NCBI GenBank assembly: GCA_964016885.1
Contig: OZ024743.1
Location: forward strand, 3,410,001-3,474,000
Source of the DNA: Eledone cirrhosa
Taxonomy: Eukaryota
Reading direction: 5' to 3'
DNA length: 64,000 nt
Part shown: in pieces, positions 25,768-51,902 of the stretch
Numbering within the stretch: position 1 is the first letter of the stretch
Layout of the letters: each line of letters begins with the position of its first letter
The notes under the pieces: model-generated
The model's database searches: none
Told to the model about the DNA's origin: nothing
What the model saw: only the letters and a program-made list of their open reading frames with translations
Translations under genes and position numbers: made by a program

Positions 25768-26000
25768 AATATTTATTGAAATAACAGATTAAAGTTTAAG
25801 CAAAGAATCGCTGCTTTCACCCTTAACGGGATCTTCTGAGTTTCAGAAGATCCCGTTAAGGGTGAAAGCAGCGATTCTTTGCTTAAACTTTAATCTGTTA
25901 TTTCAATAAATATTATTTGCTCTACGGTTCTTATATATCTGATATATATTTATCCTTATCGAGCCCACTTTGGATTTTAGTCTTCAAATTTATTATTACT
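25768..26000 (+). mobile_element. Fold-back element, family P2
   Basis: Palindrome 25768-25914 with apex at 25841, directly before CAGAAGA t-ccc-gttaa-ggg-t GAAA. Confidence 0.85.
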
Positions 26001-26420
26001 ATACATACATATATACCTATACATACATACATACATATATACATACATACATACATACATACATACATACATACATACATATATATATATATATATATAT
26101 ATATATATATATATATATATATACCTATACATACATATATATATATATATATACATATATATATATACCTATACATACATATATATATATATACATATAT
26201 ATATATACCTATACATACATATATATACATACAAATATATATATATATACCTATACATACATATATATATATATATATATATATATATATATATATATAC
26301 ACATATATATATACCTATACATACATATATATATATATACCTATAAATACATATATACCTATACATACATATATACCTATACATACATATATATATACCT
26401 ATATATATATATACCCATAT

Positions 26421-26551
26421 ATAGGAAAAAGTATGACCCGGGGTCATACTTTTTCCTATTTCCCACTCTACTACCCTAAGCATTGAGTACTCTGGTGCGT
26501 TATGGAATTGTGGTATGGTCCATCTGGTTCCTTACCACAATTCCTTTTGTT
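26421..26551 (+). mobile_element. Fold-back element, family P1, short arms
   Basis: Palindrome 26421-26459 followed by the P1 tail. Confidence 0.8.
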
Positions 26552-26640
26552 ATATATATATATATATATATATATATATATATATACATATATATATATA
26601 TATATACATACCTATACACACACACATATATATATCTATC

Positions 26641-26810
26641 TAAGGCGGGTAAAATTCCCGAGATCCATGGACGAGTTCTCTCCAGCGGTCTCTGTCCCTC
26701 ATTATCTCTGCCATGTCCTGCGTCTCCAACAGACCAGTGTCTGTCCTTAGGGCATCAACATACGTTAACCTTGGTCTTCCTCTTCTAGTGTGTCCATGTA
26801 GGGGCTCCCA
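26641..26810 (-). mobile_element. 3' fragment of the second RTE family
   Basis: [26 protein letters not shown]. Confidence 0.85.
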
Positions 26811-26953
26811 ATATACATATAAATATACATATATAAACATATATAAATAGACACATATATACATATATAAATATACACATACATATATATATATATATAT
26901 AAATATACATATATATATATACATATACACATATATATACATATACATACACA

Positions 26954-27025
26954 TGCATCGGTAGGGGTTCTCCTACAAGGATATAAAGTAGTGGCCGTAC
27001 TCGAAAACGAGTTGGCAGCCACCAA
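26954..27025 (+). mobile_element. 3' end of the bipartite RTE derivative
   Basis: Matches 5567-5637. Confidence 0.85.
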
Positions 27026-27045
27026 TATGTATATATATATATATA

Positions 27046-27655
27046 TGGTGGCTGCCAACTCGTTTTCGAGTACGGCAACAACTTAATATCCATGTAGGAG
27101 AACCCCTATCGATGCACTGAACGAGTGTGACTTTTTAGTCCAGCCAGCGACTTAAAAACTCTGGTACAAACACTACACTTGTGACAATTATTGACACACA
27201 GTGCTGGGCCCATGGTACCATGTGACGACAAGTGCAGAGAGATCTCCAGATATAAAGCAATGCCTGTGCCGTGAAGCTTTTATAGTGAGCAAAGGCACTG
27301 CACAAAGCCAGTCCCACTCTCTTAACCAAGATGATATTTACCAAAAAGAAGAACAAGTCAACATCATTGGATACCATCAGGGTTGCAGGTGTTATATCAG
27401 AGTTTGCCTTCTCCTAGAATTCTGTCTTGACAAAGGCTAAGGGGTCATCTCTCCCTGTGATTTTGGATGGCCATTGACTCTTAAGAGCTCCTTTGCCCTT
27501 CTGACAGGTTTTGTTTTTAGTCCTGCAGGATGTCCAAAGTCATCCCCCTCACCAAGAAACCTTGGTGGGGTTGCCAGTTTAGTCGCCAACGACCCGACCA
27601 TGGGACAGGTTGTACTGGGATACATGTTACCAGTAGCACCAACTGGTGACCTGAC
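27046..27655 (-). mobile_element. Bipartite RTE derivative, longest copy
   Basis: Reverse complement of 5027-5637. Confidence 0.8.
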
Positions 27656-27837
27656 ATATACATACATATATATACATATATATATATATATATATATATA
27701 TATATATATATATACATATACATATATACACATATATAATATATATACACACACACACACACACACACACATATATATATATATATATATATAAATAAGT
27801 ATACCCGGGTGTTTATGATTGTGAATAGAAGATTATA

Positions 27838-28205
27838 TTAATAAAAGAAATTCCAACTTTGTCTGATTTACTCGTTTTATTTACAATCCTTTAAAATTAT
27901 AATGGTATTAGAATGAAATAGTATGGTAGAATATTAAATGTTAAGTGTTAATTGAACAAGTACTTTCTTGCTTTTGCAGTCTTCAGGTTTATATTCTGTG
28001 GTGACAGTCAAGATTGCAATTTTTGCAAACTTGACTGTCACCACAGAATATGAACCTGAAAACTGCAAAAGCAAGAAAGTACTTGTTCAATTAACACTTA
28101 ACATTTAATATTCTACCATACTATTTCATTCTAATACCATTATAAATTTAAAGGATTGTAAATAAAACGAGTAAATCAGACCAAGTTGGAATTCCGTTTA
28201 TTATT
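27838..28205. mobile_element. Large fold-back element with an HHR in each arm (27955-27989 minus; 28051-28089 plus)
   Basis: Arms of about 180 bp, apex near 28021; aac CTGAAGA c-tgc-aaaa-gca-a GAAA gtac TT gtt. Confidence 0.85.
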
Positions 28206-28916
28206 ATATATATATATATATATATATATATATATATATATATATATATATATATATATATATATATATCATACATATATACATATACATATATATATAT
28301 ACCTATACATATATATATAGGTATAGGTGTATATATATATATATTATATACCTACACTTATACATATGTATATACACACCTATATATATATATATATATA
28401 GACACATATATACACACATATATACACATATATATATACACACACACACATATATATACATATACATATATATATATATACCTATACATCTACACACACA
28501 CATATATATATATACATCGTTCACACATATATACATGCATGTATGTATACGTGTGTATATGTATATAAACTGATTATTTTCTCGTTCAGGCCTTAGCCAT
28601 GGATTCAGAATCTTAATAAATTAGCCACAAAACCATTGACATATAAAGTATATGTTGTTATAGACTCTTGTCAAACAAACTATAAACTCACGGATTGACA
28701 TATTACAAACATTGATTGGGAATAACGGAAATAAATCGATTTTTTTTTTCAATTTCCTGAACGTAATTGTATTGTACTTATTTGAAAATGTATATATATA
28801 TATACATACATATACATATATACGTATATATATATGTATATAAGTATATGTATGTATGTATATACATATATATATATGTATATATATATATATATATATA
28901 TATGTATATATATATA

Positions 28917-49085: not shown

Positions 49086-49420
49086 TGTAGCGGTTGTCTC
49101 CCTTGTTGTGACCCCAATAGATTAACATCTAGACGGGAAGTAGAACCCTTTCTGTAACTTCCGGTCAGAGCGCTATAAAACGAATAGCCTTCGGCTCTCT
49201 CTCTCTCTCATTGGTCCTTCCGGCGCCTGGCTAAGGCCAGGCGTCTTCTGCCAGTCTGCGTTTGCCTGGCAATCATCTGCCAGCCTGCGTTTGCCTGGCA
49301 ATCAAATCGGTAACTACTAACTTTGCTTCATTCTTTCATCTATTTCTTTGACATGTCAACTATACTATCTACCATTGTTAATTAAATATTATCTACACAA
49401 ACAATGTATTCCTTGTTACA
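49086..49420 (+). mobile_element. Candidate solo LTR
   Basis: TGTAGC...GTTACA ends, TATAAAA and ATTAAA signals; no TSD seen. Confidence 0.45.
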
Positions 49421-50140
49421 TTCATACAACCCAGTACTCTCGCTATATATACATTTAAATACCATTAGTTAAGTACCATTAATTTTAGAGGATCCCGCTT
49501 AGCCAATATGGAAAGCCGGTAGTAATCTTAAGCATAAATGAATTTCAGTGTTTATGGAACTCAGTGCTGACAAATTTGTCGGATTACCTTTAGTATACAT
49601 ACATACATACATACATACATACATATGTACGTACATACGTACGTATGTATGTATGTACGTACGTATATGCATGTACGTATATATATATATATATATACAT
49701 ATATATATATATATATATATATATATATATATATATATATATATATATATATATATATATATATATATATACATATATATATATATATATACATATATAT
49801 ATATATATATATATATATATATATATATATATATATATATATATATATATATATATATATATATATATATATATATTTATATGTATATATATATATTTAT
49901 ATGTATTTATATGTATATATATATATATATATATATATATATATGTATATATATATATATATATATATATATATATATATATATATATATATATATATGT
50001 ATATATATATATTTATATGTACATATATTTATATATATAAATATATATATATATTTATATGTATATATATATATATATATATATATATATTTATATGTAT
50101 ATATATATAAATATATATAAATGTATATATATATATATAT

Positions 50141-50330
50141 AGTAATAATAATAAATTTGAAGACTAAAATCCAAAGAGGGCTCGATAAGGATAAATATAT
50201 ATCAAATATATAAGAACCGTAGAGCAAATATTTATTAAAATAGCAGATTAAAGTTTAAGCAAAGAATCGCTGCTTTCACCCTTAACGGGATCTTCTGAAA
50301 CTAACAAAGTCAATCTCTAAACGCAGAAGT
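50141..50330 (-). mobile_element. Family P2 copy without inversion
   Basis: Reverse complement of the P2 body, extending upstream of CAGAAGA. Confidence 0.8.
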
Positions 50331-50647
50331 GAATATTTCAAAAAACGTTGCAACCGGAGGAAGACAAGAAGACGATACTTTGGTTCGTGGAAACGTTCCC
50401 TGGCAAAGAACGGGAAAAAACGAATATAATACGTCATTATTTGGTGCGGTGAAAAACAATTACACGCAAAGACAGAACCACGTTTATTGTATAAAAGAAG
50501 TCGTAGACTAATATTCTCTAAGGTGGTTCATGGAGACGTTCTCTGGCAATGAACGAAAAAAACGAAGATAATACGTCATAATACGTCATTTTATCATCAG
50601 ATAAAATACTGTTCTTGAATATGTCACTATCTATAAAACAACTTTTG

Positions 50648-50710
50648 TATTTTATCTGATGAAAGCGTACCAAAAAATGTTGGTACCCTTGAAATATATA
50701 TAATAAAATA
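50648..50710 (+). ncRNA. Type I hammerhead
   Basis: tattttat CTGATGA aag-c-gtaccaa-aaaatg-ttggtac-c-ctt GAAA tatata TA ataaaata. Confidence 0.85.
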
Positions 50711-50788
50711 AATATGGTTTTATAAAGATAGTTTCCATTTATTAATATTATTGATATAAATATATATATATGTATAGCCTTACACACG

Positions 50789-50845
50789 CTGATGAACCAT
50801 GGGTTATTTCATTTCTGTCAGCAACTTATTGGCGAAACAGATTTC
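50789..50845 (+). ncRNA. Hammerhead-like motif, stem I not evident
   Basis: CTGATGA a-ccatgggtt...aacttattgg-c GAAA cag. Confidence 0.45.
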
Positions 50846-51154
50846 TTTGGATTTGTACGTGTGTTATATAGTTATAGAGGTATGTATTTACACTTTAATT
50901 TATATTTTTAATTATCGTGTGTCTACTCTGCCTTTCATGGGTTATAGATTCCATACACTGGTGGTTTTTTCCTGTTTTATTGATAGCGCACTATATCTCT
51001 CTCTAGTGTGTTACCTTTTCAACATATTGTATTTTAAAGAGCTCAGGATTCCTTCTCCTTTGAGCACATTATTTACAGGGAATAGCGAGAGTCTATGGCT
51101 CAGTTAATTTATCGTGATATAAATATATATATATATATATATATATATATATAT

Positions 51155-51314
51155 AATAGAAAACGAAAAATCAGTGATGTATCTGAACTCACAATAAATT
51201 GAGTTCAGATGCATCACTGATTTTTCGTTTTCTATTCTATCATACTCTGCTCTGTAAGAGCATAGCGTGCTCAACCGGCATAACGCCTATGGAAGCATCT
51301 TAGCTACCATCAGA
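51155..51314 (+). mobile_element. Fold-back element without a visible HHR core
   Basis: Palindrome 51155-51236 plus a one-sided tail. Confidence 0.7.
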
Positions 51315-51555
51315 CACATACACCACACACACACACACACAGACACACACACACACACACACACACACACACATACGCACACACACACAGAGACACATAC
51401 ACCACACACACACACACACAGAGACACACGCACACACAGACACATACACCACACACACAGACACACACACAGACACACACACACACACACACACACACAC
51501 ACACACACACACACACACACACACACACACACACACACACACATATATATATATA

Positions 51556-51902
51556 TAATTGGTTATGCACGAGTGCATTAATGTTTTCCAGGACACAGTG
51601 TTATGTACCGTGTAGTGGAATGTCAGCTTACAACAGAGTGGTGCTCAACGAAATGCAGAAAAAAGGTGTATATTCCAGTTTAGCTATATTCCGGGGCGTG
51701 TATAAGGAATTAAAAAGAACAGAAAGATGCAGTAAAAGAGATTTATTCGGTTCTTACGTACGTTTCAATAGACATCAATTTGCCTAGATCTCGCTACATC
51801 TAGATGTAGCGAGATCTAGGCAAATTGATGTCTATTGAAACGTACGTAAGAACCGAATAAATCTCTTTTACTGCATCTTTCTGTTCTTTTTAATTCTTTA
51901 TA
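51556..51902 (-). mobile_element. Fold-back element retaining the HHR 3' half
   Basis: Palindrome 51701-51902 with no spacer (centre 51801/51802); GAAA cgtacg TA agaac in both arms. Confidence 0.85.

Follow-up and report, generated by a model that had tools for sequence, protein, structure and literature searches.

A 64,000-nucleotide (nt) stretch of the Eledone cirrhosa genome (assembly GCA_964016885.1, contig OZ024743.1, positions 3,410,001 to 3,474,000, forward strand), hereafter the window, contains hairpins that proved to be 3' ends of retroelements from several families, labelled A to I and K. Judged from their sequences, these belong to the endonuclease-bearing Penelope-like retroelements (PLEs) and lie head-to-head in (TA)n. 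We propose, with a probability of about three in four, that such insertions form when both nicked target strands prime synthesis on element RNA and the resulting complementary DNAs (cDNAs) run off its 5' end, which is likely capped. The proposal draws on the two-armed architecture of the insertions and their fixed outer ends, on pile-ups of inner ends at a position with characteristic TATA or initiator spacing, on an extra G found there in two families, on non-overlapping arms and on a minor class of ends at a predicted ribozyme cut site. A preliminary description of the same DNA had remarked that the hairpin apex often coincides with the core of a hammerhead ribozyme, and had suggested that the folded ribozyme stalls reverse transcriptase (RT) or defines the template end, and so sets where the cDNA folds back.

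Hairpin-forming 3' ends of this kind occur in tens of thousands of copies across the 3.0-Gb host genome, and the window itself is abundant in (TA)n. Exact patterns for the tails matched 26,074 sites for family B, 13,452 for A, 7,968 for C, 265 for E and 147 for F, and the family B ribozyme half alone had 53,653 exact matches. The tail pattern of family H matched the window copy only, and results for H come from incidental copies. Open reading frames (ORFs) were read in families A, B and F, in copies interrupted by stops; long copies encoded RT motifs (FD..YSS, YRDD) followed by a C-terminal GIY-YIG-type endonuclease. The RT was unrecognised by Pfam and had 1559 homologues at E<=1e-20, one of them named a reverse transcriptase domain. 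GIY-YIG scores fell below the Pfam cut-off (E 0.006-0.07), and the family F endonuclease fragment had no match among longer proteins in the homologue search. Family A carried the Hydra-type motifs DKT and, by eye, RWR; a CxCx5C linker and the endonuclease CxxC and CxH motifs were present in A, B and F, and the partial tandem or inverted arrangement with a one-ended tail was also observed. This motif set, together with insertion in (TA)n, agrees with the definition of the Hydra clade given in the accessible part of PMC8557442. The Neptune clade, which needs a CX2-5CxxC linker, DKG and CCHH in the endonuclease, was ruled out by the CxCx5C linker and DKT. Broken ORFs for PLE-type RT and GIY-YIG of other clades lay at 55577-57133 (+; RVT_1, E 5e-10), 10975-12403 (-) and 57473-57802 (+), and comparison of the family A RT with the other PLE-type RT in the window gave no significant match. 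In the 3' untranslated region of family A, a ~140-nt internal duplication was present just upstream of the pseudo-long terminal repeat (pLTR) region at L081, L414, L418 and L419.

Each insertion comprised a direct arm ending at the tail, often accompanied by an inverted arm whose outer end was a second fixed site 70-145 nt upstream. A single outer base was shared by 85 family B inverted arms, and the outer flank was TA-rich in 189 of 199 two-armed copies. The same two-arm form was observed with kilobase arms (L412, L413, L415, L416, L419); in family E, an inverted arm was found in 0 of 35 copies. At the inner end the inverted arm was more than 10 nt longer than its partner in 75 of the 199 copies, and in 37 the two arms had no sequence in common. 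An inverted arm that holds sequence its partner lacks cannot be a fold-back copy of that partner, which argues for two priming events; this agrees with the two RT start sites and the two-strand activity of an Anolis PLE in vitro, as reported in the available text of PMC11167929. The fold-back of the preliminary description thus fails for these longer inverted arms and remains conceivable for the 102 copies whose arms ended within 10 nt of each other. Joints between arms were short overlaps in 101 copies, flush in 23 and linkers in 75.

A different route to the same structure would keep the end at the transcription start but derive the inverted arm from self-priming of the cDNA, which copies back to a fixed stop. 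Self-priming has been proposed for PLE palindromes in the text seen of PMC3846280, and the near-equal arms and the joints overlapping by a few bases are what it would be expected to leave. It does not provide for the inverted arms that carry sequence absent from the direct arm, nor for those that share none with it, and later deletion of one arm would explain only part of the length differences. Family A tail arms clustered at +60..+75 (numbered from the inferred start, +1), the point at which a second primer would be met, and an extra base followed both arms at some junctions (L088, L339). We therefore regard self-priming as unlikely and favor two primers on element RNA.

Inner ends were mapped against natural long copies at loci L001-L321 and in the window, using 92 tail-anchored copies of family A, 141 of B, 64 of C, 52 of F and 35 of E; anchors that lay too close to a locus edge or failed alignment were dropped. 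The ends piled up in an interval of 17 nt, -6..+11, around the inferred start. Among tail arms that reached this interval, 15/42 in A, 77/87 in B, 27/43 in C and 21/28 in F ended within it; for inverted arms, the corresponding counts were 20/28, 72/76, 29/32 and 10/10. Hazard ratios for ending in the interval ranged from 4.9 to 32 over the four families, although the interval was selected after the data were seen and its p-values are inflated. Uniform breakpoints were thus rejected, and the earlier contention that ends are non-random was borne out. Short-read contigs (one sample, possibly the assembly's own, in which depth is not copy number) aligned to a family B copy showed a summed depth that dropped ~15-fold across +1 and did not drop at the core; strand-switch joints lay at 2629-2642. 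A second drop in contig depth, at L191:2714-2729, ~75-85 nt upstream of the B start, may reflect subfamily divergence or another end. Two other candidate landmarks were discarded: a fixed distance from the priming site, which was 60-75 nt in A, B and C but 170 nt in F, and the end of the ORF in family B, which stops ~700 nt upstream.

The core itself did not serve as a common landmark. The position at which arms recurrently ended, here termed the wall, was offset from the core by -5 in A, -6 in C, -7 in F, +44 in B (in loop II), -42 in K, about -43..-45 in H (by eye) and -61..-89 in D (10 distinct hairpins among 70 cores); relative to GAAA the offset varied from -18 to -104 across families. 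The CUGANGA-type box had only 1/139 tail ends and 3/90 inverted ends within 30 nt of it in family B, and the same distance from GAAA took in only 6/52 tail ends and 3/26 inverted ends in family F. The wall lay beyond the ribozyme, on its 5' side, in A, C, F, H, K and D, so that in most families the RT has already read through the core when it stops. Stalling at a folded hammerhead, with fold-back of the cDNA there, would account for the overlap of the pile-up with the core in A, C and F (hazard ratios 4-17 for the core +/-8), for second clusters at palindromes within the ribozyme and for a few D arms that end just 5' of stem I. It is contradicted by families B, D, H and K and by the shift of the wall between families, from -89 to +44, and it leaves the many inverted arms that cannot be fold-backs. 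No excess of ends was found at GAAA +/-8 in A, C and F, and a family B transcript starting at the wall would lack the 5' half of the ribozyme and, in predicted folding, forms no hammerhead. Stalling as the determinant of the main apex is thus very improbable. Under run-off at the RNA 5' end, the hammerhead would lie near the apex mainly because it is among the first things in the transcript.

The wall is likely a capped transcription start, as judged from the promoter-like motifs around it. A TATA-type box lay 29-33 nt upstream of the wall in families B, C, F, H and K (TATA+31..33 in H); the wall fell on an initiator-like A in family A and at a conserved pyrimidine-A motif in family D. In family K, which was examined after the idea had been formed and for which both arms of a hairpin are counted, 26/39 arms ended at -1..+9 of TATA+30, 0 ended between -98 and -2, and 2/39 ended near the core. 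Among arms that ended exactly at +1 and whose -1 base was unexplained by the other arm, a G preceded +1 in 13/17 in family A and 12/20 in family B, where 25% would be expected; the patterns used left out T at -1 and -2. As an internal control in family A, the G was present at 9/11 ends at +1 vs 3/27 other ends. By eye, the extra G was also present in 53/100 and 66/100 of the genome matches listed. Capped full-length L1 ends carry an extra G (PMC11702581, in the part seen), and the G before +1 in A and B is as would be left when a cap is copied. Promoters are known in pLTRs (PMC2377424, PMC6765202), and that of the Drosophila Penelope pLTR is internal and TATA-less (PMC2377424). In a partial tandem copy the ORF starts ~45 nt downstream of the tail, which places the inferred start so as to drive the ORF; a transcript from it would encode the element protein.

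The wall could alternatively be a point of RNA or DNA processing, such as a 3' splice site, a host nuclease site or a product of endonuclease resolution. An AG lies at or beside the wall in A, B, C and K, the end of the Drosophila Penelope intron maps to helix I (PMC4209133, portion available), and families F and K lacked the extra G. However, the AG is part of the arms, which end at its A, the linkers are variable with no constant upstream exon, F has no AG at the wall, and the TATA spacing recurs in five unrelated families. A 3' splice site was rejected, and processing in general appears decidedly unlikely compared with a capped start.

The motifs near the apices are hammerheads, as the preliminary description had held; they are of type I, with predicted core boxes, stems I-III and an NUH site. 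Matches to a hammerhead descriptor were obtained in B, D, F, I and K, and the folds in A (with a U4A core), C, E, G and H were recognised by eye. In family B, loop II is long and the core is of the U3-A8 type, with most of its variation at position 7; the B sequence was predicted to fold unaided into a three-way junction, with an energy no better than shuffles (z -0.49). Among 150 of 265 Rfam rows there was no hammerhead; the matches there were microRNA look-alikes, located on hairpins and TA repeats. The distance from inferred start to predicted cut was 46 nt in A, 41 in B and 45 in C, despite their differing core positions; it differed in F (116 nt) and K (72 nt). Palindromes within the ribozyme formed further minor junction sites (loop II in F, stem III in B); in family F, a second cluster at +50..+76 held 7/46 tail ends and 12/26 inverted ends. 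Type I hammerheads of other families, without window hairpins, were also found at 8075 (+), 8760 (+), 10589 (-), 20413 (-), 24314 (+) and 50656 (+); the families of those at 24314 and 10589 recur in many loci and seldom end near the core.

A minor class of copies ends exactly at the predicted cut site, which suggests that the ribozyme defines the template end for some insertions. Family B arms ended exactly at this base 573 times genome-wide, against 142 times at a base 7 nt upstream that served as a control. When 20 cut-site arms were read, 16 were true ends, 3 were ambiguous and 1 showed no end; 7/10 arms at the control position were not free ends. In 9 of the 16 insertions both arms ended at the cut +/-1, often with one extra base between them. 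Among sampled copies there were 6 cut-site ends in B vs 2.5 expected and 3 in C vs 1.1, with 0 in A and F; the 6 in B compare with 77 at the start. Since most arms pass through the cut site, the usual template was uncleaved there. The proposal that the ribozyme defines the template end was thus apt for this class and did not extend to the main apex.

The insertions would be formed as follows. We infer that the endonuclease makes a nick in each strand of (TA)n, with one 3'-OH serving as primer at the tail end and the second priming at the site 70-145 nt upstream. With priming sites 60-310 nt from the RNA 5' end, both cDNAs would usually reach it, like strong-stop DNA. The two may be made on one RNA by strand displacement, or each on its own RNA within a dimer, and the templates may be full-length RNAs or short transcripts. 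Run-off would occur at the cap or, in the minor class, at a ribozyme-cut RNA end, so that the hammerhead sets the template end only once cleaved. Short overlaps or untemplated linkers would then connect the two cDNA 3' ends, unless these had been joined earlier at an internal palindrome.

Several observations weigh against this interpretation. The start site was placed from DNA alone, and neither A nor D has a canonical TATA box. The extra G in family B did not clearly exceed its internal control (7/14 vs 25/103, p 0.057), and no G excess at +1 was found in F (1/9), C (1/2) or K (no clear excess). Family A was weaker than the others, with 27/42 tail arms running past the start, and family E had no clear wall, with 3-4/28 ends near its putative start. 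Position cannot separate start from core in A, C and F, where they lie within 8 nt of each other, and 3-4/73 D arms stopped just 5' of stem I, ~10 nt short of the core. Each of the 102 near-equal two-armed copies could be a fold-back. The cut-site excess was weak in sampled copies, its genome-wide test used one control position and one subfamily, and the Anolis PLE had no RNA ends at the cut site in the accessible part of PMC11167929. The sample comprised the first matches along the largest contigs, 30 of the B loci were chosen by a pattern inside the ribozyme, and the contig-depth result carries the limits of its single short-read sample.

The hairpins might also descend from a few master palindromic elements or be assembly artefacts, and some recurrent junctions and some duplicate loci (L324/L325) were indeed seen. 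With both arms at the start, however, 79 distinct junctions were found among 85 copies, the arms differ by point changes, and strand-switch joints were present in the short-read contigs; this explanation is largely refuted.

Much of this system has counterparts in the accessible text of earlier reports. The Hydra clade of Craig et al. 2021 (PMC8557442) has the same DKT, RW[K/R], CxCx5C linker and C-terminal GIY-YIG, the same CxxC and CxH around E and N, the same (TA)n target and hammerhead near the 3' end, and the same one-ended tail with an inverted, 5'-truncated partner copy. That report has few families outside cnidarians and leaves the origin of the inverted structure and the role of the ribozyme unexplained; here there are tens of thousands of copies, with junctions that map to a likely start site and a cut site. 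The Anolis element Poseidon PAc studied in vitro by Frangieh et al. 2024 (PMC11167929) resembles these elements in having a tail defined by two RT start sites, in nicking and extending both strands, in its AT-rich target and in its use of uncleaved RNA as the main template. It belongs to a different clade, its tail is 30-40 nt vs ~70-145 nt here, and cDNA ends and inverted arms are not addressed in the part of that paper available to us. In Adineta, the inverted pLTRs of Penelope described by Arkhipova et al. 2013 (PMC3846280) have the same head-to-head arms, one-arm tail, junction palindrome, and TATA and initiator in the pLTR. Those were explained by self-priming on an antisense template, whereas the non-overlapping arms and extra G observed here point to two primers on sense, capped RNA.

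Twin priming of L1 (PMC11702581, in part) shows the same internal second-strand priming giving 5' inversion and the same extra G at full-length ends; in L1, however, the second site is variable and the arms barely overlap, while here the site is fixed, overlap is often full and near-perfect hairpins result. The PLE hammerheads of Cervera and De la Pena 2014 (PMC4209133) include the same type I folds in pLTRs with a palindromic stem III, the same U3-A8 core as family B and close motif pairs on opposite strands. Here, loops II are 40-90 nt long and, in B, the likely start falls within this loop; no description of genomic cleavage footprints was found in the portion seen of that report. The elements, the ribozymes and the inverted arrangement were therefore already known, and the junction mapping and model were not found in the open literature searched: no full text found there connected the inverted junctions of PLEs with a start site, a cap-derived G, twin priming or a cut site, and subscription papers may bear on this novelty.

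The formation of PLE inverted pLTRs and the role of their hammerheads are named as open questions in the available parts of PMC8557442 and PMC11167929. The junctions provide a testable model in which two primers act on a template that ends at the cap or, in a minority, at a ribozyme cut; it predicts exact start and cut sites for several families. A more extended and tentative hypothesis, to which as a whole we give somewhat less than even odds, has four parts. PLE inverted repeats would arise by fixed-site twin priming plus run-off at the capped 5' end, an analogue of the strong-stop step of LTR elements; the hammerhead would cleave in vivo, and its 3' product would itself be a retrotransposition template; the location of the B promoter inside loop II would mean that only the downstream ribozyme copy can fold; and the 41-49-nt start-to-cut repeat of A, B and C could serve for strand transfer. 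If this were true, the hairpin DNA of this genome, amounting to millions of bases, would consist of abortive strong-stop products and would record promoters and ribozyme cut sites at single-base resolution.

Within the window, a masked scan detected 13 non-microsatellite inverted repeats. All hairpins of the preliminary description were present in the sequence, and the scan recovered every one except the short hairpin at 26440, which was seen by direct reading. Family A accounted for apices 25841 and 42920. The two-armed insertion at 25768..26001 (+) has an inverted arm at 25768-25839, whose outer end is the second priming site, and a direct arm that runs from the inferred +1 (25839) through a core variant at 25844 to a tail ending at (TA)n. 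In the hairpin at 42855..43077 (+), the arms join at +4..+7, at a natural 3-bp micro-palindrome overlapping the core. Direct reading of the A insertion at 28921..29075 (+) found arms that scarcely overlap, a twin-priming form without a hairpin, and a longer A copy at 50143..50590 (-) extends beyond the inferred start and has a visible unbroken hammerhead. The family C hairpin at 37237..37416 (-; apex 37363) has arms to +9 and +5 and its core at +7; in long C copies, a TATA box lies 30 nt upstream of the inferred start. Coincidence of the apex with the core at 37363, 25841 and 42920 was as originally described.

Family B contributed apices 18411, 25051, 37766 and 26440. At 24914..25112 (-; apex 25051), the tail arm extends to -2 and the inverted arm to +5; the inferred start is inside loop II, and this copy lacks the core. 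At 37704..37905 (+; apex 37766), the arms extend to about +2 and +3 with a short linker, and in the subfamily hairpin at 18354..18535 (+; apex 18411) both arms begin, by eye, ~+7 from an initiator-like A in unbroken relatives. The family F hairpin at 51553..51902 (-; apex 51801) turns next to a 12-bp AT palindrome of the long loop II, at the second F cluster and away from the start wall. Placement of apices 18411, 25051, 37766 and 51801 in stem or loop II corresponded to real hammerhead folds in unbroken relatives.

Four apices had been listed as exceptions to the association with the core. Two are at or near a family wall: 19054, in the D copy at 19030..19205 (+), is the family's recurrent end ~80 nt before the core position, and 28021, in the H hairpin at 27795..28208 (-), is ~10 nt inside the TATA+31..33 wall and 35 nt before the core. 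The other two are linked to the ribozyme: 26440, in the short B hairpin at 26424..26552 (+), is the predicted cut site and belongs to the cut-site class, as 51195 probably does, lying, by eye, 3-4 nt after the predicted cut of the hammerhead in longer relatives of the family G hairpin at 51151..51310 (+). The family E copy at 34068..34317 (+; listed at 34067) is indeed truncated at the core, but it is a plain 5' truncation joined to TA without an inverted arm, and it was the only one of 28 truncated E ends within 10 nt of the core. In the family I insertion at 42339..42600 (+), the inverted arm has its inner end at GAAA, but it is ~125 nt long rather than 33, and the direct arm, from ~6 nt before the core, has an internal deletion and a 31-nt tandem duplication. 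A family K copy at 22730..22940 (-; position 22897), absent from the preliminary description, is truncated at TATA+30, 43 nt before the hammerhead core.

Other repeats were also observed. At 26954-27116, the inverted arms of another repeat surround a short TA run, tail-to-tail rather than head-to-head. An inverted repeat at 29130-29863 has 259-nt identical arms and a rearranged centre; it contains an endonuclease C-terminal fragment and a hammerhead-like motif ~250 nt from the apex, a further exception to an apex at the core. ORFs at 9669-10175 (+) and 44094-44408 (-) resemble what we take to be fragments of mariner-like and hAT-like transposases, respectively. Fragments of long interspersed nuclear element-type RT ORFs lay at 14098-15229, 32366-33620 and 52548-54283, all on the minus strand.

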